64,000 nucleotides of DNA, taken from the IMG/VR virus record IMGVR_UViG_3300046817_000498; one strand, 5' to 3'. This document shows positions 21,111 through 64,000 of this stretch, in pieces. The position numbers and the translations under genes were made by a program. Under the pieces are notes generated by a model. That model was not told the origin of the DNA and did not search any database. It saw only the letters and a program-made list of their open reading frames with translations. Source of the DNA: a virus. Every line of letters begins with the position of its first letter. The first letter of the stretch is position 1.

Positions 21111-21202
21111 GGCCGCAGATTGTAGACCAGCGGCGGCACCGTGAGGGGAGAAAAGCCCACGGGCCGCGCCGGCGCTCGAGCGTCTGGCTCTCGAGCAAGG
21201 GG

Positions 21203-42124: not shown

Positions 42125-42129
42125 CACAG

Positions 42130-43215
42130 ATGGGACGCCGCAGAAAAGACGGTAATCCCCTCGGCCTCGAGCCGCGCGTCTACGCGCACCATGGCCAGTT
42201 CATCTATCGGCACCGCGACGGCACGGCCGAGCAGCTCGGCAAGGACGTCGCTCGCGCGAACGCGCGCGCCAAGATCTACAACGATCCGGATCATCGCTTC
42301 GGCACCCTCGGCTATTTCCTCGATCTCTACATCGCCGAGGCTGAGGCTGGAAGACTCCTCCGGAAGAAGAAGCCACGCACGATCGCCGACTACAAGGTGC
42401 ACGCGCCTTTCCTGAAATCGGTGTTCGAGCAGCTGCTCCCGACCGACCTGGTGCGACAGCCGGAGCTGCTCGCGGAATACCGCGATCGTCGCAAGGCCAA
42501 GGTCCGCGCGAATCGCGAGCTCTCTCTCCTGTCCGCGATGTATGCATGGCTCATCGAGAAAGGCTACTCCCCGGGCCTCAATGTGAATCCAGTGGGCAAC
42601 GTCGCGCGCAATCCTGAGAAGCCGAAGGAGCGCTATGTGGAAGATGCTGACGCCGGCGCCGTTGCTGCGATCGCGCTCCGATCCGTGTGCATGGCCATGC
42701 GCCTGGTCTATATCACGCTGCAGCGCCCGGCTGACATTCTCGCTCTCTCGCCTCAGTCACTCACAACGAAGACCGTCGGCGGGGTCGCAAAGCGCGTGCT
42801 CTCCGTGACACAAGGAAAGACAGGACGCACAGTCAATATCGAGCTGACGGACGAGCTCGAGGAAACGCTCTATATGCTGTCTCCCGATCGCGAGCCCGGG
42901 AAGATGAAGATCTCGGAATCGGTGACGAAGCTCGTAAAGACCTTCGTGCACACCTCCGACGGATCAAGGTATTCGGATGACGGAATGCGCGCGATGCTGC
43001 GGCGCTATTGCTTGAAGTGCGGAGTCTCGACCTTTGGGCTGATGGATCTCCGTGCGAAGGGCGCGACGGATATGTATCTCAACGGTATCCCGCTCGAGCG
43101 CATCCAGATGCTCATGGGCCACAAGTCGGTTGTGACGACGGAGATCTATATCAAGCGGCTCCTGGCGCTCGTGCGGATCGCCCAGCCGAACCGGGTTAAA
43201 ACCGGGTTCGCGTGA
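42130..43215 (+). CDS. int: tyrosine integrase
   Basis: 361 aa from ATG 42130. ITLQRPADIL, DLRAKGATD and LMGHKSVVTTEIYIK provide the R, H-x-x-R-like and Y catalytic elements. Confidence 0.85.
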   Translation: MGRRRKDGNPLGLEPRVYAHHGQFIYRHRDGTAEQLGKDVARANARAKIYNDPDHRFGTLGYFLDLYIAEAEAGRLLRKKKPRTIADYKVHAPFLKSVFEQLLPTDLVRQPELLAEYRDRRKAKVRANRELSLLSAMYAWLIEKGYSPGLNVNPVGNVARNPEKPKERYVEDADAGAVAAIALRSVCMAMRLVYITLQRPADILALSPQSLTTKTVGGVAKRVLSVTQGKTGRTVNIELTDELEETLYMLSPDREPGKMKISESVTKLVKTFVHTSDGSRYSDDGMRAMLRRYCLKCGVSTFGLMDLRAKGATDMYLNGIPLERIQMLMGHKSVVTTEIYIKRLLALVRIAQPNRVKTGFA

Positions 43216-51000: not shown

Positions 51001-52231
51001 CCATGTAGGTGATGCCGACCACCAGATTGACCGAGGTCGAAACGCCGGTGACGCTGCAACGATAGAAGCCGCCCGGGACTGGCGTGATCGTCGCGGCGCC
51101 GAGTGCGTTCCCGATGATGCCGGCTGAAATATCGAAATAGACCGAAGACCACGCAGTTGTTCCGTCCTGCACCTGCAGGATGATCCAGTTACGGCCGGCG
51201 GCCTTGGCGCAGACCGAATAGGTATATTGGACAGGGGCCGTAGCCTTCGAGAGATTCTGAGCGATCGAATGCGAGGTGCTCGTGTTGTCCTCGACGAGCT
51301 TGTCCGCGGTGACCGTTCCGTCCGGAGCGGCTCCGGCATTCGCGCTGACTGACGAGGCGGTCTTCGTCCAGGCCGCATTGTCCAGAGTCTGCGATTGCGG
51401 GAAGAGGTTCTCCGTCCCGAGGATATTCCCCGTGAGGACCGCATACATCAATTTGAGCGCCGGCAGCTCGAGATAGACGAATTCGTCTACCTTCGGCTGC
51501 TGATCAGCGGTCGACGTGGGATCAACCGGGTGGTCCGCGGCGAGCGTATTCAAAACGCCTCGAGCGCAACCAGTGAACGAAGTCGGCGTCGTCGCGGTAG
51601 CGCGGATGACCTCGTCATTCAACTTGAAATAGAGAACGGTCGCGTTCGGCGCATCGCTATACGTCGAGCCGTGCTCGAGGAGCTCGAAGTCGGTTGTCGA
51701 AACCACATTGATCGTGGTGTCTGCCGCCAGAACGCTCGCGGTGATCGTGGTGCTCGCGACGTCGAAGATGTTGTTCCGCAGCTGCCGCTGCACGTCCAGG
51801 CATCGAATCGAATACGCGCCGTCCTTGTAGGAGGCGTCCTGAACCATCTGAGTCTGGACAAGGGAATAATCCGACCAGGCCAGCCCGGCGTACCCGACAT
51901 AAAGCCTCACGCGCTGTGACCTGGTCGAACGCCCGAGGGCGAGCTGTCCGCCCAGCGCGAGAGTCACGGATCCAGAGCGATCGACAAGAGAGAAGTTGAA
52001 ATTCCCGATCGACGCGTTGGCCGTGTCTGGATTGAGCGTCTGGCTGGTGCCGGAAAGCGCCTGTACGACGTTCGATATGGCGACTGCGCCCGCCGGCAAA
52101 GCCGCATCGGTGTGCGAGGTGAAATATCGGAGCACTGTTGCCCCGAGATCGAACGCCATCTCGATCACGTAGCGCGGCTCCTTCGAGAGAGCGCGATTCG
52201 CGGCCGCGAAGACTGCGGTGTCTGTCCTCAC
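48092..52231 (-). CDS. large tail / host-specificity protein with C-terminal Asp-box (BNR-like) repeats
   Basis: 1379 aa. The N-terminus is like phage central tail proteins. The C-terminus carries spaced S-x-D-x-x-x-W motifs (SADAVTWT, SPDGVTWT, SDDGITWA, SFDGDNWS, SDDGSNWR). Confidence 0.6.
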   Translation of the reverse strand: MRTDTAVFAAANRALSKEPRYVIEMAFDLGATVLRYFTSHTDAALPAGAVAISNVVQALSGTSQTLNPDTANASIGNFNFSLVDRSGSVTLALGGQLALGRSTRSQRVRLYVGYAGLAWSDYSLVQTQMVQDASYKDGAYSIRCLDVQRQLRNNIFDVASTTITASVLAADTTINVVSTTDFELLEHGSTYSDAPNATVLYFKLNDEVIRATATTPTSFTGCARGVLNTLAADHPVDPTSTADQQPKVDEFVYLELPALKLMYAVLTGNILGTENLFPQSQTLDNAAWTKTASSVSANAGAAPDGTVTADKLVEDNTSTSHSIAQNLSKATAPVQYTYSVCAKAAGRNWIILQVQDGTTAWSSVYFDISAGIIGNALGAATITPVPGGFYRCSVTGVSTSVNLVVGITYMAQSNGGPSNYAGDGTSGVLLWAEQLNVGPLALPYAVTTSAARAGSMLPTSWNLGVDPSLVRLSDYLNKDDLYSAIDDDLGFNVFFQAMKKTDGKKFLETELALLLGVFMPVYADGSLGLKRMSNILTGAAYSAQFDETNVVSYGDLLHDFVSLHNVLEIDWNYELVQDDFTRQNFLIDEGSTEIYQTADVLTLAFRGLYGSRHTAAMLQGRFDAFRDRYSSPPLRLDISTYATQNGLEVGEIARVKLANIRDYIASSSGQIVSLDRSFEIQNVSIEWETGKLSFKLMATSRAPDAVAATADASVLTSGWYTGTGTSLASVITIAGSSPGHVTAGGTLQGSTSLLSTSAVYYYNGDLQIDASVLINWTQNIWLRVNGFLTVNGRMTGKGAGILGASKVAPLSRDPSSYTTNLGTQGFIGSTEAGGGAYIDGVIANSIRGDVVQGNNPTMPVFVLSWDGANLSGVPNDLRGSSGSTGVWANSGNPLLGDPRKIGGAGVRGGVGGAGGGGILITCKGISFGVAGQIDTSGADGFPGDSLDVGNYFMYGGSGAGGAPGGLLIILDGASTIATGLTTGFVARNGSTPIVAATLPSPSTEFDFQGALNLYSYYVGTGDGIAFPLPDMSGARGGSRVQYVPGNPAAVQDNPTVLGGDLESSVLSSWIAVLDQATAKILHAVAWVGFLQKFVAAGDIVTSNPLLYTFANDLVLTNQSNGMTSAIQGLAASGSIIVAVGGSAGVQNAYSSADAVTWTARGTTTAGLNGVCFGDKFVAVGNASSGSAYTLTSPDGVTWTVRTNSSTVRLRAVAWNGKRYVAVGDSNAGTPSIAFSDDGITWAQAASVPASAASLYSVAWHKATLRWIAVGDHVSTTPPLILSSFDGDNWSNVSNSFASGDDFRSLVSTGAVLVAGGVDGLGSVVTSMKLSDDGSNWRRAANPGGSNKYVFGLAWSGRRAIGVGGNSGGTSTYIVASGSL

Positions 52232-52235
52232 GGAA

Positions 52236-54179
52236 TCAGGTCAGAAGCAGGAGGTTGAACGAGAGCTTGAACTTGCTCGGGCCGATGCGGGCCTCCTGAT
52301 AGCCGTCATCATCGAGCACGGCCGGGACGATCGCGCCTGGGACGGCGATGGTGCCGTATCGATCGAACTGCATCACCTCACCGGCAAAGGACGAAGCGAG
52401 CATCTCTCGCCATTGCGGCATGGAAGTTTCATCGATCAGATCCCCGCTCGGCGGTCCCAGGGCTGTTACCGCCATACGTACCTCGCGCCTGGTGTAGACG
52501 ACCTCGGGCTGGCCGCCGCCCAGGGCGGTCTGCGACGCCCTGATCGCCTTCGCGCTGCGATCTGAGACCTCTGAATAGAACTCGAGTTGATAGGTCTGGC
52601 CGAAGCCGCGTTTATAGCCAGTGATGAGCACGGGCGTCGTGCGCACTAGGGCGGCAGGTGTCCCGCCGCTCGTGTTGATCGTCCAGGTTTCTCCTGTATA
52701 GGAGACGACGGAGGTTGCCCCTGCAGCGGCGCGTCCCGGATTGAAGACCGCCGCCACCGTGCCGTTGATGCCATTGCGCATCTCCGCGTAGTAGTACTTG
52801 CCGGAAAAGAACGTCGCAAGTCCGGCGCTCTCGGTGCCTAGCTCAACCGGAGAAGTTCCGTCGAAGATGCTCGTCGCCGTGGCCTGCGTCACCGTAGCGC
52901 CGAGCTGTGTCCACGTTCCAAGTCCGGTCGTCGGGTCGTAGTCGTCGCTGGTGTAGAAGACGAAGGTGCGGCCGCTCGCGCCATTGTTGACGTCAAACGT
53001 CACGCGCACCCAGTGAGCGCTCCCCGCCGAGAACCCTACGGCGGCAGTTGAAGTAGCGCTCTTTAGAGCGGTGCCGTTCTCCGTCCAAAAGAAGGAGAGG
53101 AATCCGCTCAGGTCCATCACCCAGGCGTAGGAATAATTCGAGCCCACGTTGTCCTTGACGATGATCGCCTGCGATCCAGACCCAGTCGCCCAAAGATTGG
53201 GAGCGATCTTCGAGCGGAAGTCGATGTCTCCGGTAAAACTTACAGCCGCGCTGTCTGGCGTAGTCACGTTGTTCCCGGCGATACCCGGTATGCTCAGATA
53301 TTCCGCGCCCTCGTCGAAAAGCTGCGGCCCTTGCAGCAACGCCGGCGGCGTGCCAGAGCTGTTGATCGTCCACGTTTCTCCGGTCGCGGCCACGAAGGTC
53401 GTCGCGCCGCGCGACGCGCGAGTCGGGTCGAACGCAGCCACGATTGGTCCGCCGATGCCATTGCGAACCTCGGCGTAGTAGATGCTTCCAACGACGAGAG
53501 AATTTCCGACAAACAGGGCTCCAGTGCCGTTGTGAATCGCGCCCGATGTAATGGTGATATTGGTGCCCAGCTGCGTGAACACCACGCCATCTGTGCTGGT
53601 GAAGAACTGGACGACACCGCTGCCCGAATTGTAAGTGGCCTTGAACCAGCCGATGACGCCGTCGACAAATGGCACCGGCGCAGAACTGGTTGCGATGCGG
53701 CCGCTCGTCGTTACCCCATCGCTCGTGTATTGAAAATTCAGTGTGCCGGCGGAGCCGATAAAGATGACGTAATCCCGATTTGTGCTTGCGTCGTCTTTTC
53801 CGATGAGCTGCCAGTTTCCGGATTGCGTCCAATCTGGCAGAACGGCGCGCGCCGTAAGCTCTATGCTGCCTGTGACGCTCGCCGCTGCGCTGTCGGGAGT
53901 GCTGGCAAAATTTCCCGCGACGCCCGGCAACCTCAGATGATCGATCGGCGGCGTGAGCGTCAGGATCTTCCCCGAGGTCGAATTGGCCTTCACCTGGTAC
54001 CATCCTGAGCTGCGCGTGAAGCCAGAGACCTGCACCCACTGGTCCTGGACGAAACCGGAAAGCACGGATGAAAGCGCATTGATCGAATCGTCGGCGGCGG
54101 AGGTGAACGCGTCCGTGATCGAGAGCGCAGGGCCGAGAGTCTCGATGTCGCGCTTGGCGGTATAGGCGATCGTGCCCAT
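52236..54179 (-). CDS. distal tail protein with two tandem lectin-like (LamG/ConA-type) repeats
   Basis: 647 aa. Two repeats of about 190 aa start L(R/S)(L/I)PG(V/I)AGN..(S/T)TPDSAA and end YYAE(V/M)RNGI(G/N)G..AAF(D/N)P.RA. Confidence 0.5.
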   Translation of the reverse strand: MGTIAYTAKRDIETLGPALSITDAFTSAADDSINALSSVLSGFVQDQWVQVSGFTRSSGWYQVKANSTSGKILTLTPPIDHLRLPGVAGNFASTPDSAAASVTGSIELTARAVLPDWTQSGNWQLIGKDDASTNRDYVIFIGSAGTLNFQYTSDGVTTSGRIATSSAPVPFVDGVIGWFKATYNSGSGVVQFFTSTDGVVFTQLGTNITITSGAIHNGTGALFVGNSLVVGSIYYAEVRNGIGGPIVAAFDPTRASRGATTFVAATGETWTINSSGTPPALLQGPQLFDEGAEYLSIPGIAGNNVTTPDSAAVSFTGDIDFRSKIAPNLWATGSGSQAIIVKDNVGSNYSYAWVMDLSGFLSFFWTENGTALKSATSTAAVGFSAGSAHWVRVTFDVNNGASGRTFVFYTSDDYDPTTGLGTWTQLGATVTQATATSIFDGTSPVELGTESAGLATFFSGKYYYAEMRNGINGTVAAVFNPGRAAAGATSVVSYTGETWTINTSGGTPAALVRTTPVLITGYKRGFGQTYQLEFYSEVSDRSAKAIRASQTALGGGQPEVVYTRREVRMAVTALGPPSGDLIDETSMPQWREMLASSFAGEVMQFDRYGTIAVPGAIVPAVLDDDGYQEARIGPSKFKLSFNLLLLT

Positions 54180-54180
54180 G

Positions 54181-56217
54181 TCAGGATTGCAGGATCGCGG
54201 CCTGGCGCGAGTTCTGGCCGATGATCACGATGTCGCGGTTGTCCACCGCGTCCTTTATCTGCGGGATTACCTCATCCTGCACGAGCTTCCGGATACCATC
54301 GTCACCCAGAACGCCGCTATTCGTGATGTTGACGTTCACCACGGTTTGCGACGATGCCGGCAAGCTGGTGGCTGGCGCCGTCGATCCAATGCCGGGCGTG
54401 GTGGCGATGGGATTGGACACGGATCCCGCACTCGCGCCTCCTGATCCAACTTGGGAGGCCTGGGCGATTCCGGTCGCTGCGATAAGCGCGATCTGAATTG
54501 CTCCCAAGGATTGTATTTGCGCTGCCAGCGCGGCACCGGCGACGGGACCAAGGCCGATCGGAGGAGGAGCAAACGCGGCCATGGACGCGACGGCGGTCTG
54601 CTGAATCACCTGCGCGATCGCGAGCGCCTTTTGGATAGCGATCACTGCGATGGCCGCTGCTTTCGACTTGCCTGCGAATACCTGGAGGAAGTCGGCCGCG
54701 AGCTGCCAGGTGTTCATCTCCAAGTTCGTGACGATCATGGCCTTCTGCCGTTGCTGCTCCTGTTCCTGATATATCGCTGTCGCACGCGCATCCTGGTAAC
54801 GGGCGAATACCAGCATGCTCTGGCCCTGCCAATAGTCGTCGGTGATGAACTCCTTTTCCCGGGCTTCATTCAGGAGCGACTGTTCCTGCGTATAGCGTTG
54901 CTCGATGATCTGGAGCGCGGTCTGATTGTGCGTTAGGAGCGCGCTGAGCTGAGCGGCAAGCGCCGCGTTGTATTGGTCTTTGGGCGTGATACCGAGATCT
55001 CCGCCGCCTTGATTCATGGCCGCTCGCTGCGCTGCGATCTGCTTCGCCGCGGAGTCCATTTCTGTTTTCATGCGAGCCACGAAGGCGACGAACTTGTCGT
55101 GCGGCAGGCCCTGGGCGATCAGGTCGTTCAGCTCCTTCTGTACCGAGTCGCCGACGTCGAAGAATCCTTGGGCGAGCGAATGAAGGTCATCGCCTATGTC
55201 GCCAGCGTTCTGCTGCACCGCGCGCGCCGCCTCTCCCATCGCTCCTGGGAGTCTAGCCGCCCACTTCGTGATCGGGTTGTCGGAGACAGCCTTCGCTATC
55301 ATGGAGAACGACTCGAGAGTCGCGCCCGTGAAATCGGCCAGCACGACCTTGATCGCCATATAGGCGTATTTCACGCCCTGGAGCGCGTTCAGGAGATATC
55401 CGATCGCCTCGACCGTGAACCCGGTGCTCTCCACGACCTGATCACGGAAGCCATTCGCTTCCTTGGAAGCGTCCGCGAAGCCGTTCGCCAAGCCAGCAAT
55501 CATCGGCGCGAGGTTGAGGGCGATCGTAGTGAAGAGACCCTTGCCGGCTGCGTCGGCCCGCTTCATGGCGTCGTTCGCGAGCTCGATCTTGGCCGCGTCG
55601 ACGCGATCGAGCGCCAGGCCCCAAGCCTTCGTATCCTCTTCGGCCTCCTGGAAAGCCTTGGAGCCCTCTGCGACTAGACCCGCCATCTGTCCAGCCTGAC
55701 GGCCCATGACCGCCTGCGCGGTCGCGTTCCTGACCGTCGCGTTCTCCATTTTCCCAAGACGATCGATCACGAGCGAGAGCTGCTGGTCCATCGGGAGCTT
55801 CAGGAACGTCGACACCTCGATCCCGAGGCGTTGATACGCGAGCCTCGAGGCCTCAGTGCCCTGCATCGCGTCCACGCTGCTCTTCGCAATTCCTTTCAGG
55901 GCATTCGATAGACCGTCCTGCGAAACGCCGGCGAGGTCCGCGGCGTGCTGCATGCCGATCAGGGTTTCTGTAGCGATCCCGAAGCGGTCTGAGAGCTTAG
56001 CTGCCTGGTCGGCTGCGTTGGCCGCGTTCTTCGTCAGGTCAGCGAACCCGGCGATCGAGAGCCCGACCCCCAGGCTCGCGAACATGCTCTTGAGGCTGCC
56101 GACCGCGTCGCTCATGCTCTTGGTCGCGTCTCCGACCATCGCTTTCGCCTTGGCCATATCATCGGCCAGGCGCGCGATATTCGCGCTCATCTGGATTTCA
56201 AGGGAACCGGCGATCAT
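54181..56217 (-). CDS. tape measure protein
   Basis: 678 aa, Ala/Gln/Gly-rich and helical. Position follows the chaperone genes. Confidence 0.75.
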   Translation of the reverse strand: MIAGSLEIQMSANIARLADDMAKAKAMVGDATKSMSDAVGSLKSMFASLGVGLSIAGFADLTKNAANAADQAAKLSDRFGIATETLIGMQHAADLAGVSQDGLSNALKGIAKSSVDAMQGTEASRLAYQRLGIEVSTFLKLPMDQQLSLVIDRLGKMENATVRNATAQAVMGRQAGQMAGLVAEGSKAFQEAEEDTKAWGLALDRVDAAKIELANDAMKRADAAGKGLFTTIALNLAPMIAGLANGFADASKEANGFRDQVVESTGFTVEAIGYLLNALQGVKYAYMAIKVVLADFTGATLESFSMIAKAVSDNPITKWAARLPGAMGEAARAVQQNAGDIGDDLHSLAQGFFDVGDSVQKELNDLIAQGLPHDKFVAFVARMKTEMDSAAKQIAAQRAAMNQGGGDLGITPKDQYNAALAAQLSALLTHNQTALQIIEQRYTQEQSLLNEAREKEFITDDYWQGQSMLVFARYQDARATAIYQEQEQQRQKAMIVTNLEMNTWQLAADFLQVFAGKSKAAAIAVIAIQKALAIAQVIQQTAVASMAAFAPPPIGLGPVAGAALAAQIQSLGAIQIALIAATGIAQASQVGSGGASAGSVSNPIATTPGIGSTAPATSLPASSQTVVNVNITNSGVLGDDGIRKLVQDEVIPQIKDAVDNRDIVIIGQNSRQAAILQS

Positions 56218-56564
56218 AGGGCGGCGAGCTTTCTCATGGAACGTTTGAGCGCGTTTGCAGAGGCGCGCGGATCCGCCTCATGCTTCCAAGGCGGCTGGCG
56301 ATTGGCGTCGGTAGCCAGAGCGGCCTCGACCAGATATTCGTTAGAGAGTCGGCGCAAGAAAGAGATCTGCCACGGCTCGAGCTCGACGCCCGTGTTCTGT
56401 TGCCAAGCGAGGATCTCTGCGTGGGTAAGCACTGATTGGCCTGTGACAGGGCCCGCGCCCCAGAGGTAGTCGAGGATGAATTCTGCGTCCTCGACCGGTG
56501 GAAGATCCGGCTCATAGGTCGGATCCTCGAGGTCGAACCGCACCTGCTCGATGCGCGAGAGCAA
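56214..56564 (-). CDS. tail assembly chaperone, frameshift-extension (T) part
   Basis: This frame stays open upstream to the slippery site at 56663-56669 and is -1 relative to 56639..57061. Confidence 0.6.
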   Translation of the reverse strand: MLSRIEQVRFDLEDPTYEPDLPPVEDAEFILDYLWGAGPVTGQSVLTHAEILAWQQNTGVELEPWQISFLRRLSNEYLVEAALATDANRQPPWKHEADPRASANALKRSMRKLAAL

Positions 56565-56638
56565 TTGCTGCGGCTTCGAGGATTCGTCCTGCCTCCGCGG
56601 GACCGCGTTGAGCCATGCGACGAAGCGAACTCGCCGGC

Positions 56639-57061
56639 TCAGGTCGCCGTAGAGGCCTTCGTAAAATTTGCCTTCTCCCGATGGAAGACCTCGACCTGAT
56701 CGGAGAGGAGATAGCCGATATCTGGATCGGAATAGATCGCGATCGCGAGCTGCTCCCCGGTCAAATTGGGGAAGAGCTCTTTCGCGAGATTGTCAGAGAA
56801 TCCGCGGGTGACGTCGGCCGCGAACTTCGCTTTGTCACGCGAGACCTCATCGCCTGATTTCTTCATTTTTCCTTTGCGCTGGATCATATCCATCGCTTCG
56901 CCCTGGGAGCGCGCGAGCGCGCGCATGTGCGCCCTCGAGCCAGGCCCATAGATCTCGGCCGTGCACGGCTTGCCGTCAGCTCCCAGCATCACCTCTTCGT
57001 TCGCGTCCTTGAAAATCAGAACGGCGGCCTCGGTCAGACCATACTGCTTGCGAATATCCAT
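56639..57061 (-). CDS. tail assembly chaperone (G part)
   Basis: 140 aa, between the tail tube and tape measure genes. Confidence 0.6.
   Translation of the reverse strand: MDIRKQYGLTEAAVLIFKDANEEVMLGADGKPCTAEIYGPGSRAHMRALARSQGEAMDMIQRKGKMKKSGDEVSRDKAKFAADVTRGFSDNLAKELFPNLTGEQLAIAIYSDPDIGYLLSDQVEVFHREKANFTKASTAT
56663..56669 (-). other. -1 programmed frameshift slippery heptamer A AAT TTT
   Basis: Minus strand gcA AAT TTT acg lies 8 codons before the G stop. The -1 frame reads KFYEGLYGDLSRRVRFVAWLNAVPRRQDESSKPQQLLSRIEQV, joining into 56214..56564 with no stop. Confidence 0.6.
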
Positions 57062-57267
57062 CGGATCACCTCATTAAAATTTAGAATTTACGTCCGCGCT
57101 TATTGGGCACAGCCTCTGCGGCCAATGCCTTCGCGGTTCCTTTTGAAGCGCCCTGATTTCGCATCAGGGAACGACGCAGCCGCCACCGCCTCGACTGAAC
57201 GAGGCGGTGGCGCGCGTCGCGACTTCTAGCACGGAGAAACGAGCCGCGCACCCGAGGAACGGCTTTC

Positions 57268-57837
57268 CTACGGCTGCGGGATGATGACCGGCTTGCGGCA
57301 GATTTCGAGATCGACGTTCACCTTCTGGACGTCGTTCACCGTGCCGTCGGCGTATTCGAACTTGGTCACCAGCACGTCGAGATAGTGGAACTCGCCATCC
57401 GGATACCGCAGCTCGATCGAGTAGTGGATGCTGCCGTTCTCCGATGCCGTCTTCAGCAGGACCTGGCCGGCATCGCCCGGGACGCTGCCCATCGAGAGCG
57501 ACATCGTGCCGTAGTCCTTCGATCCCTTGATCTTGTTGACGGTCGCAGTGTCGATGGGCGTGAACTTGGTCACCGTGGCCGCCATGCCGTGATTGCCGAT
57601 CGACTCGACTTTGCCGACCGTCGTGAAGAGCATTGCGGAGGCGTCGTAGCCAGCAGTGTCGAACGTCGCCGGCAGCTGCGCCGAGATCCCGATGATCGCG
57701 CCGGCGATGGATTCGATATCGGTGCGCTGGATCTCGAGCAGCAAACCTGTCGAGCGCAGGTATTCGAAGGCCAGATCGTTCAGCTTTTCGCCGAGCGCGG
57801 CGATAATGGACAGCAAGAAGAGCGTGATTCGTTTCAT
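57268..57837 (-). CDS. major tail tube protein with hydrophobic N-terminal extension
   Basis: 189 aa. The region from about residue 33 (LEIQRTD..VGKVESIGNHG..TPIDTATVNKIKGSKDYGTMSLSMG) resembles phage tail tube proteins. The first 15 residues, MKRITLFLLSIIAAL, are signal-like. Confidence 0.55.
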   Translation of the reverse strand: MKRITLFLLSIIAALGEKLNDLAFEYLRSTGLLLEIQRTDIESIAGAIIGISAQLPATFDTAGYDASAMLFTTVGKVESIGNHGMAATVTKFTPIDTATVNKIKGSKDYGTMSLSMGSVPGDAGQVLLKTASENGSIHYSIELRYPDGEFHYLDVLVTKFEYADGTVNDVQKVNVDLEICRKPVIIPQP

Positions 57838-57864
57838 GGCTCATTTCCCCTTTCGCGGGTTGAT

Positions 57865-57888
57865 TAAAAAAAGCCCGCCTCGGGCGGG
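57865..57888 (-). terminator. intrinsic terminator 1
   Basis: Minus strand: CCCGCC-cga-GGCGGG, then C TTTTTTT. Confidence 0.6.
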
Positions 57889-57902
57889 GTTACGGTTCTT
57901 GG

Positions 57903-57932
57903 AAAAAGAAAAGGGCCGCAAGCTGCGGCCCC
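57903..57932 (-). terminator. intrinsic terminator 2
   Basis: Minus strand: GGGGCCGCAGCTTGCGGCCC, then TTTTCTTTTT. Confidence 0.65.
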
Positions 57933-57959
57933 TCGTTTAAACGACTTCGCCTGTTGTGA

Positions 57960-58388
57960 TCAGGCGTTGAACTTGACGATGAAGTCCCTCGACTGCGTAT
58001 AGAGCGCGGTCGTCTCATCCGAGAGATCCGGGCCCTCGAGGTCCGGGAGGATGCTGTCCACCAGGACGCCGTTGATCGCGCCGCGCGCATTCCTGCAGGC
58101 CGCCATGACCAGGGCGAGCAGCTGCTTCACTGCCGGGTATCCGGCGCCAGCGGGCGCGCCCTCAGTACCTTTGACGAGCGCTGTGATCTGCACGCGTTCG
58201 CTCTGCATGAACCGCGGGTCTGTCATGCCAATAGTGAGCATCGGCACCCCGCTGATCTCCTTCACAGAAAGCGCCGGCATCTGCAAGTTGATCGGCGCGT
58301 CGCCCGCGAAGATGTGATCCTCGGCCACGGCCGCGAGCACGCCCTGGTCGTGCGCCAGCAAATACCTGATGACCGCGACGCCGCTCAT
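57960..58388 (-). CDS. DUF3168-like tail completion protein
   Basis: 142 aa from ATG 58388 (ATGA coupling). Position and size are typical of tail terminator / neck proteins. Confidence 0.5.
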   Translation of the reverse strand: MSGVAVIRYLLAHDQGVLAAVAEDHIFAGDAPINLQMPALSVKEISGVPMLTIGMTDPRFMQSERVQITALVKGTEGAPAGAGYPAVKQLLALVMAACRNARGAINGVLVDSILPDLEGPDLSDETTALYTQSRDFIVKFNA

Positions 58389-58885
58389 TGATCGGCCTCG
58401 ATCGAGATATCGGACGTGTCCAGCCCCTCTTTCGTTGCGAGGCGCTCCTTCATATATTCGGCGGCCGCGACGACGGCAGAGCTCGCCTGCCCGTCCAATG
58501 CCGGGCGCATGAAAGGGTGCGGCGCTGCGCCTGGATGTACGACGCCCTCCACGATCTGGCCGTCCGGAAAGCGCAAGCCGTGTCCAGGCTGACCGCCGAT
58601 GAAATGCGCCTTCGTACCGTACTCGACCCATTTCGCGACAAACGCATGCGGGCCTGTGGCCTTGATATTGGCGGTCACGAGACCGCCCTGGGCGCGGGTA
58701 CCGACCTTCAAGCCCGCGGCGAGCTCGCCAGACACCGAATGGATGCCTTGGCGCGCCGCCGGGAGCACGACCATCATGCCGGCGCGGAGCGCGCCGCGCA
58801 TCACGTTGCGCTCGACCTTTGGCGTGAGCTGGTCCAGGAACTCCTGCAGGTCCGATAGGCCTGTGACGTTGATGTCCTCGCTCAC
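58385..58885 (-). CDS. HK97 gp10 family neck protein
   Basis: 166 aa. AKWVEYGTKAH ... HPFMRPAL matches the gp10 family signature. Confidence 0.65.
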   Translation of the reverse strand: MSEDINVTGLSDLQEFLDQLTPKVERNVMRGALRAGMMVVLPAARQGIHSVSGELAAGLKVGTRAQGGLVTANIKATGPHAFVAKWVEYGTKAHFIGGQPGHGLRFPDGQIVEGVVHPGAAPHPFMRPALDGQASSAVVAAAEYMKERLATKEGLDTSDISIEADQ

Positions 58886-59283
58886 GACGAATAGCGCTCG
58901 CAGAAGACCTCGATCATCGTTTTCCTGCCCTCCGCGGTCACCTGCGCCGGGCCGCCGATGATCTGATAGACGGTGTCGGCGTCGTCCCCGTGGACGGTGA
59001 TGCGCATCGACGAGTCGATATCATCGCGATACCGCATCCGGATCCTGGCCTGGTTGCGAGCGATCACCGCCCCGAGGGCGATCCCCTCGGCGCGGCTCGG
59101 GAGAGATTCCTGCACCTCGGCCCAGGACTTGACCGCGGCCGAGGGATTCGATGGATCCCGATCCAATGGTGCCCAGGCGACCTTTTGCGTCCCGAACTTG
59201 GCATCGTTTGTGACGAACTCGGGGTCGCCGGCGACGGCCTTCCGCTCGATCGTGATCTGCCGATCTAGAGCGCCTGCCCTCAC
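58882..59283 (-). CDS. head-tail adaptor (head closure) protein
   Basis: 133 aa from GTG 59283 (GTGA coupling). LDRQITIERK ... WAEVQESLPSRAEG ... ARIRMRYRDDIDSSMRI ... VYQII fits the phage head-tail joining family. Confidence 0.7.
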   Translation of the reverse strand: MRAGALDRQITIERKAVAGDPEFVTNDAKFGTQKVAWAPLDRDPSNPSAAVKSWAEVQESLPSRAEGIALGAVIARNQARIRMRYRDDIDSSMRITVHGDDADTVYQIIGGPAQVTAEGRKTMIEVFCERYSS

Positions 59284-60503
59284 GCTGCGATCCTCGGTTT
59301 CGCCGCGGCCGCACGGCGCCGCGCGTTGATCGCCTCGCTGCCTGCTAGGAGCACCAGCTCGTGCTCCCAGTTCGACGCCAGCGGCTCGACCTTGCCGAAT
59401 ACCTCGCTCACCCACCGGATCCACTCGGAGCGCGTCAGCAGCGTCACATGCGCATTGCGGCCGTCCGGAAGCTTCGCGCGCGCGAGCTTGGTCGAGATCG
59501 TGAAGACCGCGGTCGCGCCCTTTTGCCTGACCTCGCCCAGAACGCGATCGACCCCGGACATCGGGATGTGCTCGAGCACGTCGCAGCAGAAGATGAGATC
59601 GAAGACCCCGGCCGGCATGCTCTTGAAGGTCGGGATCGCAGGGTCGTAGCGCGCGATCCTGCGCTCTCCGTCGCGCCAGAAGTGGGCCACCAGGTCGCTC
59701 CGGCCGCAGCCGTAATCCAGGATTGAGGCGGGCTGCAGATCTCGCACGATCTCTGCCACCGCGTCCAGATGCAGTTCGGCCGAGGAGCTCCCGTAATGCC
59801 GGCTGGCGTGGATCTCCTGGTAGGCCAGCAGGTGGTCGTGATAGTCCGGGAGATCCCGTTTAAACGCAAAGGCGCCGATCGCCTCGCGCCCGGCGGCGAT
59901 CTCGTGATCGCTTCCCTCGAGGAACCTGAATCCGTGGAGCGCCATCCAGTCGACGAATCCGTTCCTGGTCCAGTAGTAAAGGTGCTCGCCCGGGCGATAG
60001 TGCTTCGAGGCCCTGATGCTCCTCAGGTCCTCGAAGATCGGGACTGAGGCAAAGAGTAAGGCGCCCTTCTTCACCTGCTGCAGGCGCAGCTGCGGATCCT
60101 CGAGGTGCTCGATGGTGTCCCAGAGGGTCACGGCATCGAACTGGAATGGGTCGTCCGCATACAGGCGTGCGTCTGTGAGCGCCTTCGCCGCCTCCGGGAT
60201 GACCTCGTAGCCCTTCGCCTCGAAGCCCGAGGCCTTCGCTTGAAGCAGAAACTCACCTGTTCCGGCGCCGACATCGAGCAGGCTCGCGCCCGCCGGCAGC
60301 TGGCGCTGCAGCATGGCGCAGCGGCCGGCGTTCACCGCCTTGGCGATCGCCGTCCCCTCGTAGGCCTGCACCTTCGCCAAGTACTCGGAACCGTAGAGCA
60401 CGCGGCCTGCGCGCATATCTGCCTGGTAGGCTACGCCGTGGCGCTCGCAAAGCATCAGATCGGCGTCGACCTCGGCGTCCCAGCGCTTGATGAGTCTATC
60501 CAC
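59280..60503 (-). CDS. tandem double-domain class I SAM-dependent methyltransferase
   Basis: 407 aa from GTG 60503. Domain 1: LLDVGAGTGEF ... FDAVTLWDTIEHL. Domain 2: ILDYGCGRS ... FDLIFCCDVLEHI. Confidence 0.7.
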   Translation of the reverse strand: MDRLIKRWDAEVDADLMLCERHGVAYQADMRAGRVLYGSEYLAKVQAYEGTAIAKAVNAGRCAMLQRQLPAGASLLDVGAGTGEFLLQAKASGFEAKGYEVIPEAAKALTDARLYADDPFQFDAVTLWDTIEHLEDPQLRLQQVKKGALLFASVPIFEDLRSIRASKHYRPGEHLYYWTRNGFVDWMALHGFRFLEGSDHEIAAGREAIGAFAFKRDLPDYHDHLLAYQEIHASRHYGSSSAELHLDAVAEIVRDLQPASILDYGCGRSDLVAHFWRDGERRIARYDPAIPTFKSMPAGVFDLIFCCDVLEHIPMSGVDRVLGEVRQKGATAVFTISTKLARAKLPDGRNAHVTLLTRSEWIRWVSEVFGKVEPLASNWEHELVLLAGSEAINARRRAAAAKPRIAA

Positions 60504-61104
60504 GCTTCGCTTCCCAGTAGGCGAGGCAGTCGAATTTCGCCCAGACAACTTCATTCTTCGGTAGCGAGTGCACAAGATTCCAGACCGCTGGCTGGAGCGG
60601 CCACGCCTCATGGAAGAGCACGCGACCGCAGCGTTTCACCAAGTCGAAATCAGTCTGCGTGTCATTCGTGTGGTCGCCGTCCTGGTAGCAGAAGTCGAAC
60701 TTCAGTCCCTTTACCACAGCAGCCTTGTGCGCGTTATCGTCTGCGTTGACGAAACGCAAATTCTTGATTTCCAGGTGCGCGATGATCCTGTCTCGCATCT
60801 TGATGTCCTCGCCACGATCGCGCGTGACCCCGATCACCTCTTCGAAGTATTGCGACATGATCGCGGCCGTGATGCCGTAAAACGATCCGATCTCGAGGCA
60901 GATTTTCCCGAGGAAGGTCGCTTCGCGGAGATCCACGAGGAAGCTCTCGAACTCAGCGCACGCGCTGCAGCGTCCGAATGCGGCTTTGCCGAACTGCCGC
61001 ATGATCTCCTTCATGAATGGCGATGCGAAGGGGCCACTCTTGATCGATTCGACATCGAGCGGCGTCTTCAGCTCGACGTCGGGCTGGATGCGCTCATTCA
61101 GCAT
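60496..61104 (-). CDS. class I SAM-dependent methyltransferase (O-methyltransferase-like)
   Basis: 202 aa from ATG 61104. CLEIGSFYGITAA ... FDFCYQDGDH ... DFDLVKRCGRVLFHE. Confidence 0.65.
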   Translation of the reverse strand: MLNERIQPDVELKTPLDVESIKSGPFASPFMKEIMRQFGKAAFGRCSACAEFESFLVDLREATFLGKICLEIGSFYGITAAIMSQYFEEVIGVTRDRGEDIKMRDRIIAHLEIKNLRFVNADDNAHKAAVVKGLKFDFCYQDGDHTNDTQTDFDLVKRCGRVLFHEAWPLQPAVWNLVHSLPKNEVVWAKFDCLAYWEAKRG

Positions 61105-61655
61105 GGCGCCGTCCACAAAGCGAAGATGTCCATCACCTGGATCTGCTCCTTCGGAAGTGCATTGACGAAGTCGTACACATGGTCCTGGCCGCGCACGCCG
61201 CCGCGGTCGTAGTCGTGAAACAGAACCCGGCCGCAACGCTTCACGAGCTCGAAGTCGTCCCGGATCCGCTCGTCATGGGCGCCATCGACGAAGGCCAGAT
61301 CGAACTCGAGGCCCGCGACGACCCGCGCCTTGTCCTCGTCATCATCGACGAGGACGAGCTCCACGTTGGTCACGCCCAAGGACGCCCAGAAAGCCCTGCG
61401 ATCGAACTTCTCTCCCATCGCCTCGATCTTCCCGTGCACCAGGTCGATCGTGACCACGCGATCGCAATAGCGGGAGATCTCTGCAGCCGAGACGCCCTTG
61501 TAGGTGCCGATCTCGAGGACGGTGCCGTAACCTTTGCCCTCGAGGACTCGTTTAAACACGCCCGCGCCGCCGCGGATGTTCATGGCGCTTCGCTTCAGGA
61601 CGCCGGCGCCGTGGATCTTGGCGATCCGCTCGCGCATCTCGAACTCGTTCAGCAT
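61098..61655 (-). CDS. class I SAM-dependent methyltransferase, paralog of 60496..61104
   Basis: 185 aa. VLEIGTYKGVSAA ... FDLAFVDGAH ... DFELVKRCGRVLFHD. Confidence 0.65.
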   Translation of the reverse strand: MLNEFEMRERIAKIHGAGVLKRSAMNIRGGAGVFKRVLEGKGYGTVLEIGTYKGVSAAEISRYCDRVVTIDLVHGKIEAMGEKFDRRAFWASLGVTNVELVLVDDDEDKARVVAGLEFDLAFVDGAHDERIRDDFELVKRCGRVLFHDYDRGGVRGQDHVYDFVNALPKEQIQVMDIFALWTAPC

Positions 61656-62218
61656 GGAAGAATGTTCGCGGTCATTCCGCTGTCAACGTTGGTTTTCTCC
61701 GGAACGAAACCGACTACTGAAAAGCTCCACATCATGTCGCGCTCGCTTTGGATCACGCTCACGAAGCCGAGATCGCGCAGCATCTGGGCGACATCGTCAG
61801 GACGGAAAAGGTGCAAATGCTTTCGACAGTTCTGCGGTCGCCAGTACGCCATGTCCGGATGCGGCAAAAACAGATAAAGCACGCCGCCGGCGCGCAGCCT
61901 GGTCTTCCAGTGCTCGATCGCGGCCACCGGGTTCGCGAGGTGCTCGAGGCAATGGGATGAAAAGACGTAGTCCCAGATGCCCTCAGGGAGAGCGCAGGCG
62001 TCTTTCCCGTCCGCCAGATCAATCGGGCGTGCGCCCTTCAGCGGCCATTTCCCGCATCCCACGTCCAGGCCGATCCCGCGGCAGAACTGCTTCGCGATCG
62101 GCTCGATGAACTGCATCGCGTTGCCGTGCTTCAGGTAGTCCGGATACAGCTGGCCGCGATATTCGAATAGTTCGACGACCTCGGAACCGATGTTCCGGTT
62201 TTTCACGACGGCGCTCAT
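61649..62218 (-). CDS. class I SAM-dependent methyltransferase
   Basis: 189 aa. GLDVGCGKW ... WDYVFSSHCLEHL ... GGVLYLFLPH. Confidence 0.65.
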   Translation of the reverse strand: MSAVVKNRNIGSEVVELFEYRGQLYPDYLKHGNAMQFIEPIAKQFCRGIGLDVGCGKWPLKGARPIDLADGKDACALPEGIWDYVFSSHCLEHLANPVAAIEHWKTRLRAGGVLYLFLPHPDMAYWRPQNCRKHLHLFRPDDVAQMLRDLGFVSVIQSERDMMWSFSVVGFVPEKTNVDSGMTANILPC

Positions 62219-62901
62219 GCGGCCGCCCGCGCCTGCATCAATCCGGCGAGCTTAGAATCGAATGTAATCGGGCGCGCGACTGAGTTTTCTCTAAGCCATT
62301 TCGCCTCAATCCCGGGCCGATGCCCAATCGGGTCCGACGGATCGCCGGCCTTCCAGCGCTCGTCGACATTGTGGATCCCGGAGCTGAAGAAGTCGAAGCC
62401 GGTCAGGTAGGCGTTCTTGGGCTCGCAAGCCAGCACGTCGAGAATCGCGGCGAACCCGGTCGACGGAATATGGCGCCCGAGCAACTCGAAGGATCTGAGG
62501 AAATGCTCGACCGTCGGCACGAACGTATCGCAGAACCAGAAGCGCGTGGCCGCGCGCACCGAGTAGATATACCGGAAGTCGATCCCGGCCTGCTTGTAGT
62601 TGCGCTCATGCCATTCAGATTCCAGCGCTTTGGCGTCGGGGCATTTACACATGCAGAGTTGCACGCGGTCGTGCTCGAGCTCATCTCGAGTCTTCCGGAT
62701 CGAATTGCCATAGAACGAATAGTGCACATCGCAACGCGCGCCCGCGGCCGCCCCCAGCTTGTAATTGTTGACCCGGATGACGACGTCGTGCGAGTCGATG
62801 AAGCCCGGGGTGTTCTCGAGAACGGAGGGCGCGCTACCGACGATCGCCACGCTCTTCCCGCGCAACCGCTCGGCGACCTCAGAAAAGCTCACGAAACGCA
62901 C
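62215..62901 (-). CDS. glycosyltransferase family 29 (sialyltransferase)-like protein
   Basis: 228 aa. Motif L-like SVAIVGSAPSVLE..FIDSHDVVIRVNN, motif S-like IPSTGFAAILDVLAC..AYLTGFDF, then GHRPGIE. Confidence 0.55.
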   Translation of the reverse strand: MRFVSFSEVAERLRGKSVAIVGSAPSVLENTPGFIDSHDVVIRVNNYKLGAAAGARCDVHYSFYGNSIRKTRDELEHDRVQLCMCKCPDAKALESEWHERNYKQAGIDFRYIYSVRAATRFWFCDTFVPTVEHFLRSFELLGRHIPSTGFAAILDVLACEPKNAYLTGFDFFSSGIHNVDERWKAGDPSDPIGHRPGIEAKWLRENSVARPITFDSKLAGLMQARAAA

Positions 62902-63661
62902 GCGTTGCTCCTTTGATTTGCTCTACCGGCCAGTCGTCCACGACCCAGCACGATGTGTCCTTGCTGAGCACTTTCTGCGGCGTGATGCTCGAGATGTAGT
63001 AATGCCTAGCAGGCGACATTCCATCGGCCGCCCAAACCACAAGGAGCGGCTTGTCGAACATTTCGGCGAGCGGCACGCAGAATGAAACCTGCGCGACGAA
63101 TCCGTCCGCGATCTTCCCCAGGTCCATGAGGTCAGACACGGAGGTGCCGCCGTTCAAGCTGATGTCGGCCTTGATCGGATAGACCTGCTCGGCCTTTCCG
63201 ATTTGCACCAAGAAGCAGCCATCCAATGCGGCCAGCGCGGCGTGGAACGCGGAACTGCTGGGCAACAGCTCGGCGCCAAATCCATCCTTGCGCTCCATCG
63301 GCGTGCGCCCGCCATGCACGATGACGATGGGGCGAGCATCGGCCTTCTCCTTGAGCCCTTCGACCAGTTTGTGATTGCGTACCGTCCAGTCGATCGATAG
63401 CGGGATATCGCTTCCGAGACCGGCGGAAATCGCCATGTCCTGAAATTGATTCGAGCCCTTAACCAGCTTGCGAGTGGTGTAATGCGCAAGCGTGGTCACC
63501 CCGAAGCGGTCGAACGGCTCGACCTTGACTTCAAGCCCAATGAAGGCATCAGGATAGTTGGAGCGAACGGTCACCGGCTCTCCGCCGCGCAGCATTTCCG
63601 CAGCTATGGAGCGCAGATAGAAACTGTCGCCCAAGCCTGAACCGGCGCGAATGATGTTCAC
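62879..63661 (-). CDS. glycosyltransferase family 9 (heptosyltransferase)-like protein
   Basis: 260 aa. MNIIRAGSGLGDSFYLRSI N-terminus, and a C-terminal half with IVIVHGG ... VQIGK ... SDLMDLGKIADGFVAQVSFCVPLAEMF. Confidence 0.5.
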   Translation of the reverse strand: MNIIRAGSGLGDSFYLRSIAAEMLRGGEPVTVRSNYPDAFIGLEVKVEPFDRFGVTTLAHYTTRKLVKGSNQFQDMAISAGLGSDIPLSIDWTVRNHKLVEGLKEKADARPIVIVHGGRTPMERKDGFGAELLPSSSAFHAALAALDGCFLVQIGKAEQVYPIKADISLNGGTSVSDLMDLGKIADGFVAQVSFCVPLAEMFDKPLLVVWAADGMSPARHYYISSITPQKVLSKDTSCWVVDDWPVEQIKGATRAFRELF

Positions 63662-63686
63662 GATTCCCCAAAATTGGCACAGTCTG

Positions 63687-64000
63687 TCAAGCGATAGCCT
63701 CCTCGAGCGTCATTTTCGGAAACGAGTCGATCGCCGAACGAAGATTGCAGTTGATGACCGTGATGCCGGCGGCCACGATCTCGCGCTCCGCGGCCGAGAA
63801 AGAGCGCCGCATGCTCTCGAAGAAAAGCTGCCACGGCACGCTGCGGGGGTTTTCCCCGAACCAATGGCTGCGCCCTGCCTCGTCTTGCGCGCCGTCGAAT
63901 CCAAAAAGCAGGATCTTCTTCGCTCCGGCTAGGATCGCGAGATTCAGCGCCTGATATCCGCTGTTTCTTCCGGAAGCGAGCATCTTGGGATCGAGCGAGA
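63687..64000 (-). CDS. DUF115 / Maf-like glycosyltransferase, C-terminal part (gene runs off window)
   Basis: GRNSGYQALNLAILAGAKKILLFGFDG resembles the MptE/motility-accessory-factor core. The frame stays open upstream of the listed ATG to the window end. Confidence 0.45.
   Translation of the reverse strand, partial: SLDPKMLASGRNSGYQALNLAILAGAKKILLFGFDGAQDEAGRSHWFGENPRSVPWQLFFESMRRSFSAAEREIVAAGITVINCNLRSAIDSFPKMTLEEAIA

Follow-up and report, generated by a model that had tools for sequence, protein, structure and literature searches.

Why would a phage keep a set of glycosyltransferase-like and methyltransferase genes among the genes of its neck? The question is raised by one end of a 64,000-nucleotide stretch of viral DNA (IMG/VR record IMGVR_UViG_3300046817_000498; "the window" below means this whole stretch), where seven minus-strand genes, from position 64000 down to 59280, overlap the first of several neck and tail genes. 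This block, which we call the cassette, lies in the virion module of a siphovirus of HK97 type. We think that it builds an O-methylated glycan on a virion protein, acting late and in the cytoplasm, and we would give this reading a probability of roughly 0.55; that the decoration falls on a virion protein, rather than on the host envelope or on DNA, we infer from gene position and conservation. The genes concerned, in the order in which they are transcribed, and the features that follow them are these:

63687..64000, minus strand: DUF115/GT42-like gene, 3' part (C-terminal 103 residues of a 243-residue protein; frame open to the window edge)
62879..63661, minus strand: GT9-like gene (260 residues, compact GT-B glycosyltransferase)
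62215..62901, minus strand: GT29-like gene (228 residues, sialyltransferase-like glycosyltransferase of GT29/GT42 fold)
61649..62218, minus strand: S-adenosylmethionine (SAM) methyltransferase gene, Methyltransf_23 (189 residues, Pfam PF13489, 3.3e-11)
61098..61655, minus strand: SAM methyltransferase gene, Methyltransf_24, O-methyltransferase-like (185 residues, Pfam PF13578, 1.1e-7)
60496..61104, minus strand: Methyltransf_24 paralogue gene (202 residues, 38% identity to the 185-residue protein)
59280..60503, minus strand: double SAM methyltransferase gene (407 residues, GTG start, PF13489 twice, 8.6e-24)
58882..59283, minus strand: head-closure/head-completion gene Hc1 (PF05521, 1.5e-13; phrog_25 "head closure Hc1")
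58385..58885, minus strand: Neck1/tail-completion gene, HK97 gp10-like (PF04883, 4.2e-6; phrog_5, 2.3e-18)
57960..58388, minus strand: probable tail-completion/terminator gene (weak PF11367 match, 0.0082; operon position; ATGA overlap with the Neck1 stop)
57873..57934, minus strand: two terminator-like hairpins (G+C-rich stems of 11 and 6 pairs, then T runs)
57268..57837, minus strand: putative major tail protein gene (189 residues; by position, and by homologues at the same place in related loci; no direct family match was obtained)

An earlier note on this DNA, made from the letters alone, had described seven consecutive minus-strand genes with overlapping junctions, translationally coupled to a head-tail adaptor gene. 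The run of genes is confirmed by the list of open reading frames (ORFs) and by an independent gene caller, whose stored calls on an identical public contig have exactly the same boundaries. Read in the direction of the genes, the junctions along the cassette are a 25-nucleotide gap and then overlaps of 23, 4, 7, 7 and 8 nucleotides; the 189-residue methyltransferase gene shares an ATGA with the GT29-like gene upstream of it, and direct reading of the sequence shows that the GTG start of the 407-residue gene at 60503 overlaps the preceding TAG stop. The same direct reading bears out the GTGA at 59280/59283, a 4-nucleotide overlap between the stop of the 407-residue gene and the start of the next gene. 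The coupling therefore stands, but not the name of the partner: the coupled gene is Hc1, and the gp6-like adaptor gene, Ad1, lies upstream, past the window end.

Overlaps of 4 nucleotides carry on past the cassette, between Hc1 and Neck1 and then between Neck1 and the tail-completion gene, and the first real break in the coupled run is the 122-nucleotide gap before the putative major tail gene, in which the two hairpins sit. (Together the hairpins might act as an attenuator, fixing how much neck and cassette product is made relative to tail-tube protein.) No promoter-like site was found in 56000-64000, nor any convincing terminator at the cassette borders, terminator-like matches elsewhere being weak and intragenic, and the G+C content is flat over the block and the tail genes (0.60-0.62), with no shift at the cassette. 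With neck genes on its flanks, overlaps throughout and no promoter-like site, the block appears to sit in the structural operon, as the earlier note had supposed, and not beside an att site with a promoter of its own.

What lies beyond position 64000 can be read from a Logan contig (L001) that is 100% identical to window positions 52215-64000 and extends 7956 nucleotides past the window; a near-identical Joint Genome Institute (JGI) contig reaches further. Following the direction of the genes, one meets the portal (PF04860), three small ORFs, a Methyltransf_21 gene, a 370-residue GT9 protein, a Gp80-like protein, a 392-residue protein, two small proteins, a second Gp80-like protein, a 374-residue repeat protein, a Gp77-like fibre adaptor, a 404-residue protein, the gp6-like Ad1 and the cassette, and after the cassette come Hc1, Neck1, the tail-completion gene, the major tail and tape measure genes and the distal tail proteins. 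The cassette is thus inserted between the neck genes Ad1 and Hc1, and the virion module of the phage encodes no fewer than four proteins of transferase type and six methyltransferase domains. The upstream sequence, to which the earlier note had pointed as a place to look for structural and sugar-nucleotide genes, contains the portal, fibre-like genes and a further GT9 and methyltransferase; no sugar-nucleotide synthesis or DNA-modification genes were found within 10 kb on each side (L001/L109, L007, L110 and L111).

Is this arrangement peculiar to one contig? We examined gene order in 86 other loci, namely 80 IMG/VR contigs and 6 genome contigs (metagenome-assembled genomes of Betaproteobacteria and Burkholderiales, one complete Pseudoduganella chromosome, that of sp. 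UC29_106, and one bin assigned to Anaerolineales), and all six genome-contig matches show the same phage synteny. In 70 of 71 loci the GT9-like gene immediately precedes the GT29-like one, and in 69 of 71 a DUF115-like gene lies upstream; on the downstream side 65 of 66 loci have between one and four methyltransferase genes. Some loci have a second DUF115-like or GT9-like paralogue. The cassette genes are on one strand throughout, with no match on the opposite strand in the 86 loci. Every recognisable flank is a neck gene, but the insertion point varies: Hc1/cassette/Neck1 in 18 loci, Ad1/cassette/Hc1 in 14, and before Ad1 in 2. A scan around Neck1 yielded 38 related neck modules whose upstream sequence is long enough to judge, and 33 of these have Ad1, Hc1 and Neck1 side by side and no cassette. 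The constant gene set, the varying insertion point and the contiguous neck genes of these relatives indicate that the cassette is a unit able to move and yet staying inside the neck module, at least as far as gene order and sequence tell.

The GT29-like protein is the most conserved transferase, with a median of 59% identity to the window protein, and two of the methyltransferases are about as conserved (60-63%), whereas the neck and tail proteins are less so (Hc1 46%, Neck1 47% and Ad1 37%). The families themselves are large: more than 1119 homologue clusters for the GT29-like protein, nearly all of them unnamed, 179 for the 260-residue family and at least 2211 for the DUF115-like protein. 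An exhaustive profile search gave 47 representatives at an expectation value (E) below 1e-30 and 1525 at E<1e-3.

The nature of the three transferases has to be argued with some care, because none of the three passes a Pfam family cut-off at the sequence threshold, and NCBIfam yielded nothing of use for any transferase. The 228-residue protein, which the earlier note had called a GT29 sialyltransferase-like protein with L- and S-type motifs, scores 21.1 bits against PF00777, below the gathering cut-off of 23; a PF00777 match at E<0.01 is found in 14 of its 33 close relatives, and three more distant fused relatives pass the family with 34-43 bits. Residues 16-46 align with ST3Gal-I 98-130 (sialyl motif L, the N-terminal CMP-binding segment), and "HIPSTGF" aligns with the PSTG segment of ST3Gal-I (sialyl motif S). 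Within the family H144, P146, G149 and F150 are invariant, as are further His, Asp, Asn and Glu columns of the alignment, a pattern to be expected in an enzyme; they include H177-x3-E181 and H194, which may correspond to the catalytic His/Glu of motif VS. Searches of the PDB with the sequences of the GT29-like family alone gave sialyltransferase matches below significance only. The AlphaFold2 model, in contrast (alignment of 33 homologues, predicted local distance difference test, pLDDT, 93), finds sialyltransferases in all of its best 35 Foldseek matches in the PDB, with probability 1.0 and template-modelling (TM) scores of 0.45-0.58: Cst-II, the best, and Cst-I from GT42, and ST8SiaIII, ST3Gal-I and ST6GalNAc2 from GT29. 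In a viral structure library the same model matched an "uncultured Caudovirales phage GT29", giant-virus GT29s and sialyltransferases of herpes and pox viruses. The sialyltransferase-like call, weak by sequence, is therefore firm by predicted fold, and both motifs stand, though the Pfam score remains below its cut-off.

The same protein has a near-invariant Cys-x-Cys-x-Cys motif (LCMCKCP, residues 83-87) and a fourth conserved Cys at 159. Since it stands in a cytoplasmic protein, the motif suggests a metal site; we are aware of nothing similar in GT29 or GT42 enzymes.

The 260-residue protein presents a similar case. It has no Pfam match (E 0.01) and no NCBIfam match, only one of 32 relatives matches PF01075 (3.8e-4), and a sequence-only PDB search found nothing either for its family or for the 370-residue GT9 upstream. 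The AlphaFold2 model (pLDDT 95) is nevertheless a compact GT-B fold, whose best Foldseek matches in the PDB are WaaF (1psw), the GT9 entry 3tov, TibC (4rb4/4rap) and WaaC, with probability 1.0 and TM 0.5-0.6. Enzymes of GT9 such as WaaC have an N-terminal G-x-G-D motif with the catalytic Asp and a C-terminal D-T-G donor motif. In the 260-residue family R5, G9, G11, D12 and Y15 of the N-terminal segment are invariant, while the C-terminal motif reads S-x3-P-L-A-E and not D-T-G. We regard the modelled protein as firmly of the heptosyltransferase-like GT9 fold; the GT9-like call of the earlier note is borne out by fold, without support from Pfam.

For the DUF115-like protein the same note had proposed kinship with Maf proteins. 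The full gene lies at 7539-8270 of the identical contig and runs 418 nucleotides past the window end. Against PF01973 the fragment scores 16.3 bits and the full-length protein 21.4 bits, the cut-off being 34.6, and a precomputed PF01973 match exists for about 17 of 120 listed relatives. On the other hand, the 103-residue fragment in the window matches phrog_4603, "alpha-2,3-sialyltransferase", at 1.2e-20; the best PDB matches of the family profile are all Cst-II, at E 0.04-0.2, which is not significant; and hhalign aligns the family with the GT29-like family at 90% probability (E 1.5e-6). From the PHROG match, the profile that ranks Cst-II first, the hhalign result and the sub-threshold PF01973 scores, we place the protein, going by its sequence, in the sialyltransferase-like superfamily as a minimal member of 243 residues (a second DUF115-like subfamily is about 190 residues long); the label Maf/DUF115 is weak, and "Maf-like" is not established.

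The methyltransferases are less problematic. In the 407-residue protein phrog_6564 covers residues 36-216 and phrog_24759 residues 246-375, which gives two methyltransferase domains. The 202-residue protein has no Pfam match, and its 38% identity to the 185-residue methyltransferase (E 2e-26) makes it a paralogue of the Methyltransf_24 enzyme, so that the cassette has five methyltransferase domains in three single-domain proteins and one double-domain protein, a count in which Pfam, PHROGs and paralogy uphold the earlier one. No cassette protein has a hydrophobic or transmembrane segment (the maximum 19-residue Kyte-Doolittle mean is 1.36). Natural fusions, moreover, link the enzymes to one pathway, as judged from sequence comparison. 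One protein of 485 residues joins a GT9-like part (residues 1-241, hhalign 99.65% to the GT9-like family) to a GT29-like part (273-484), and other relatives of the 228-residue protein are fused to Methyltransf_24 or Methyltransf_23 or preceded by sulfotransferase or GT2 domains (the fusions are P0389, P0366, P0370, P0375 and P0481). Fusions with methyl- and sulfotransferases are as expected of sugar-modifying enzymes, and not of protein or DNA methylases.

How might such a cassette work? It would be transcribed and translated together with the head-completion and tail genes, late in expression, and its transferases would draw on host nucleotide sugars. The two sialyltransferase-like enzymes may use ulosonic acids activated with cytidine monophosphate (CMP), such as 3-deoxy-D-manno-oct-2-ulosonic acid (Kdo) or nonulosonates, and the GT9-like enzyme may use ADP-heptose or a similar donor; we propose these donors because of the fold families and because sugar-activation genes are absent nearby. 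The three transferases would jointly put together a short sugar chain on a virion protein that is exposed at the surface, either ahead of particle assembly or in the course of it, and the methyltransferases would O-methylate its sugars, their variable number (one to four genes) diversifying the glycan.

The most likely acceptors would be the fibre-like proteins encoded just upstream, that is the 404-residue collagen-like protein and the Ser/Thr-rich Gp80-like proteins, with capsid or tail-tube subunits as alternatives. The 404-residue protein (L001 5675-6889; L192 5671-6894), which is portal-proximal, has helical repeats broken by P-x-P-x-D-G and collagen-like G-E-R-G triplets, and a CBM5/12-like C-terminal domain. 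Of 50 cassette loci, 41 have a gene of this type (fib404-like) on the upstream side, against none of 33 cassette-less relatives (Fisher p 4e-15, a test that ignores shared ancestry). We regard its product as a candidate and not as a proven substrate, given this limit of the co-occurrence test and the cassette-less Stx2 phages discussed below. In E. coli Stx-converting phages its homologues bear the annotation "portal protein", probably wrongly, because the true portal gene precedes them.

The Gp80-like proteins are of interest for another reason. The 370-residue GT9 encoded upstream of the window passes PF01075 (25.1 bits, cut-off 22) and has "GVGD" and "PDTGP"; it has no BLAST similarity to the 260-residue protein. 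Its gene is directly followed by a Ser/Thr-rich Gp80-like gene in three contexts (L001 294-1808, L096 and L097), and a metagenome scan found the pair kept at 52-66% identity in other contigs. This recalls TibC and TibA, whose enzyme and substrate genes are adjacent. A Methyltransf_21 gene precedes the 370-residue GT9 in L109. The C-terminal end of this GT9 carries a Cys cluster (CWPC...C...C), and its more distant relatives adjoin Methyltransf_23/24 genes in other metagenome contigs. As for the other proteins of this region, the 392-residue and 374-residue proteins are unrelated to each other. The latter (L001 4234-5358, between the second Gp80-like and the Gp77-like genes) has many units of the type "LPGVGSLNA", and the 3' end of its gene has 2.8 copies of a 27-nucleotide tandem repeat (ISAQDRELL); no family match was found for it.

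Cultured phages offer a point of comparison. A tblastn search with the GT29-like and 260-residue proteins against 50,697 GenBank phage records found no match, and a DNA search of the region against GenBank phages found none either. The DUF115-like protein, on the other hand, has relatives of 27-29% identity in the Pseudomonas phages PAJU2 and IME307 and in jumbo phages of Caulobacter and Brevundimonas. In PAJU2 (Detrevirus) the order is Ad1, Hc1, gp10 (DUF115-like), gp11, gp12 (methyltransferase), gp13 and tail terminator. As in the cassette, gp10 has 29% identity to the DUF115-like protein, gp12 has 34% to the double methyltransferase, and gp11 is a remote homologue of the 260-residue family (hhalign 93.7%, E 1.8e-7) with "GLGD" in common; gp11 has no similarity to the GT29-like profile. 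The site, between Hc1 and the Neck1/terminator genes, is that of the cassette in the 18 metagenomic loci mentioned above. PAJU2 differs in that it lacks a GT29-like enzyme and has a single methyltransferase. Its gene content and position indicate a reduced cassette at the same site as in the larger metagenomic lineage, whose genes have been annotated in PAJU2 only as "sialyltransferase", hypothetical or methyltransferase; we found in the literature no functional study of gp10-gp12 or of their counterparts in vB_PaS_IME307. In the jumbo phages of Caulobacter and Brevundimonas a DUF115-like gene, three to four genes for proteins of about 275 residues with no assigned function and a methyltransferase gene lie between tail and endolysin genes; in Caulobacter phage CcrBL9 (L107 7064-11553) a DUF115-like gene, such genes and a methyltransferase follow the tail genes, and three of the hypothetical proteins show no similarity to the GT9-like profile. 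We likewise found no description in the literature of a sialyltransferase/methyltransferase neck module. The suggestion of the earlier note that no such module had been described is to that extent upheld; uniqueness is not, given a widespread family and reduced versions in PAJU2, IME307 and the jumbo phages.

With these relatives in view a more specific version of our reading can be offered, which we hold tentatively and at somewhat less than even odds: a large, uncultivated family of siphoviruses of Gram-negative bacteria, mainly of Betaproteobacteria, would build an O-methylated glycan of its own (of ulosonic-acid and heptose type, made from host CMP- and ADP-sugar pools) on portal-proximal fibres of the neck or head, with PAJU2 as a reduced cultured relative and the methyltransferases as diversifiers. 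Phages of Gram-negative bacteria would then have their first virion glycosylation system, and GT29-like enzymes in phages their first biological role.

Several observations weigh against a glycan on a virion protein. The function assigned to the cassette rests on gene position and fold, from which the glycan, the acceptor and the enzyme activity are inferred. The favoured acceptor is not tied to the enzymes everywhere, since the Stx2 phages of E. coli, which have no cassette, encode a fib404-like protein (31% identity) in the interval from portal to Ad1. The solubility of the proteins does not exclude a lipid-linked acceptor, since GT9 enzymes of Waa type, which act on lipid A-core, are also without transmembrane segments. 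The sialyltransferase-like fold occurs in non-transferases as well, namely MptE/HPPK and SteA. The original deposit of PAJU2 (L095, AP009624.1 3781-4350) labels the DUF115-like ORF010 "structural protein", where RefSeq has alpha-2,3-sialyltransferase, and this could mean that the product is a virion component instead of, or besides, an enzyme; the deposit gives the same label to the capsid and the major tail protein, and if it goes back to an analysis of virion proteins, the enzyme-like protein is part of the particle. Finally, phage transferases have been reported that put Kdo and heptose on 5-hydroxymethylcytosine in DNA (bioRxiv 10.1101/2023.12.21.572611).

Each of the alternatives to which these observations lead has its difficulties. 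Packaged or structural proteins, that is a non-catalytic Rossmann-like scaffold or enzymes delivered with the virion to the next cell, would agree with the PAJU2 label, with the constant place of the genes among neck genes and with a fold that SteA and HPPK share, and yet the GT29-like family keeps invariant polar residues of catalytic type, its relatives are fused to methyltransferase, sulfotransferase and GT2 domains, and four to five accompanying SAM-methyltransferase domains would be senseless in a purely structural role; we consider this version improbable. Hypermodification of DNA, with sugars attached to phage bases and methylated before packaging so as to evade restriction, has the Kdo and heptose precedent just cited, and a step just before packaging would fit late expression. 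The usual partners (a C5-cytosine methyltransferase, 5mYOX or thymidylate synthase) are, however, absent within 10 kb on each side in four annotated loci, the methyltransferases of the cassette belong to small-molecule and O-methyltransferase families and not to DNA methyltransferases, and the fold searches returned no DNA glycosyltransferases (the DNA alpha-glycosyltransferase of S-TIM5 has a probability of 0.06), so that we think this very unlikely. Clusters of glycosyltransferase and methyltransferase genes are typical of bacterial surface-polysaccharide loci, and one could ask whether a host polysaccharide or flagellar glycosylation locus merely abuts a prophage here. This we can rule out for practical purposes: phage genes lie on both sides (Ad1, the fibre genes and the portal upstream; Hc1, Neck1 and the tail genes downstream), the boundary before 59283 that a host locus should show was not seen, with no signal at that position and with Ad1 and Hc1 bracketing the block, the same arrangement recurs in the 80 IMG/VR viral contigs, and phage synteny is found in all six genome matches.

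A more serious objection is that the enzymes may act on the host envelope, late in infection, by adding sugars capped by the methyltransferases to the core of lipopolysaccharide (LPS) or to another lipid-linked glycan at the inner face of the membrane, thus masking the receptor, sparing the progeny from debris or blocking superinfection. Among the best structural relatives of the 260-residue protein are WaaF and WaaC, which act on the LPS core, Cst-II (the best match of the 228-residue protein) acts on lipooligosaccharide, Waa-type enzymes are soluble or peripheral, in agreement with proteins that have no transmembrane segments, and CMP-Kdo and ADP-heptose are precursors of the LPS core. We still think it unlikely. 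Phage genes known to modify the envelope are found next to int/att or where modules meet, and differ from one close relative to the next, whereas this cassette keeps to the neck module in the 86 other loci and overlaps neck genes, its enzymes are conserved as much as, or more than, the structural proteins around them, and no membrane partner of flippase, Wzy or Gtr type lies within 10 kb on each side. It is this combination of fixed place and conservation that leads us to prefer a glycan on a virion protein.

Past the tail genes, at 43-48 kb, family scans gave a marginal holin-like match only, and most of the window (3000-43300) is filled by a second, unrelated phage genome of P22-like type, in which we recognise:

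15104-16357: P22 coat protein
17614-19740: P22-type portal
21515-23410: large terminase
33021-34127: ERF recombinase
39390-41255: HerA-like ATPase
42055-43215: tyrosine integrase

The sole tRNA of the window, a tRNA-Met (21201-21275, minus strand), lies just downstream of the terminase gene of this element. The presence of a P22-like genome beside the siphovirus with the cassette suggests either tandem prophages or a chimeric assembly.

If our reading of the cassette is correct, it would place GT29-type enzymes in the setting of a prokaryotic virus. Many environmental phages of Gram-negative bacteria, and a group of P. aeruginosa phages, would then carry a sugar coat that is invisible to genome annotation and that bears on adsorption, on particle stability, on antibody recognition in phage therapy and on the reading of structural maps and virion proteomes; two enzyme families, of over 1100 and of 179 clusters, in which no member has a name at present, would acquire a function. 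The idea is directly testable, because PAJU2 is cultured and a complete Pseudoduganella genome (sp. UC29_106) has the cassette.

It remains to compare the cassette with systems already known. Maf (DUF115) flagellin glycosyltransferases O-glycosylate, in the cytoplasm and with CMP-nonulosonic acids, a protein that later forms an extracellular filament; they are large, multi-domain enzymes with flagellin-binding regions. The phage protein shares their fold superfamily, but it is a bare catalytic-type domain of 190-243 residues that stays below the PF01973 cut-off, and no flagellin or nonulosonate-synthesis genes were found near the cassette (within 10 kb on each side, in the annotated loci). TibC and AAH are enzymes of GT9 fold that glycosylate protein, not LPS, in the cytoplasm. 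TibC (PDB 4RAP, 4RB4) is among the top structural matches of the 260-residue protein, although WaaF scores slightly better, there is no similarity at the sequence level, and the phage protein is about 120 residues shorter. With Cst-II, Cst-I (GT42) and the GT29 enzymes the 228-residue protein has in common a GT-A-variant fold and segments aligned with motifs L and S; it differs in being shorter, in having no membrane anchor and in its score below the Pfam cut-off. CMP-Kdo or another ulosonic acid is as likely to be its donor as sialic acid.

Among viruses, the chlorovirus PBCV-1 builds a methylated glycan on its capsid protein with its own cytoplasmic transferases and a fused methyltransferase domain, but it is a giant virus of eukaryotes, its enzymes are unrelated and its glycan is N-linked. 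The lysogenic-conversion modules that modify O-antigen (of Gtr type or of phage D3 type) are sugar-modifying systems of Gram-negative phages, as we suppose the cassette to be; their products are membrane proteins, made in the lysogen from genes close to int/att, whereas the cassette proteins are soluble, and their genes lie between neck genes and overlap them, with no promoter-like site. To our knowledge, the actinobacteriophages are the only phages in which virion glycosylation by phage enzymes is established, with an effect on immune recognition; it is also established for some giant and archaeal viruses. In the mycobacteriophages Che8, Corndog and Myrna phage-encoded transferases glycosylate the capsid and the tail tube (Freeman et al. 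2023, as cited in PMC12619734 and PMC13313380). The likeness to our proposal is close, since those enzymes act in the cytoplasm on virion subunits, a methyltransferase is involved in some actinophages, and the glycans are reported to be at the C-termini of capsid and tail-tube proteins (PMC12619734, PMC13313380); the hosts are actinobacterial, and no trio of sialyltransferase-like and GT9-like enzymes is described for them there. Glycosylation is demonstrated in mycobacteriophages and proposed here, where the cassette keeps to the neck module and its genes are conserved together. Phage-encoded virion glycosylation is thus known; this set of enzymes is undescribed, as are its constant position among the neck genes and its presence in Gram-negative phages.

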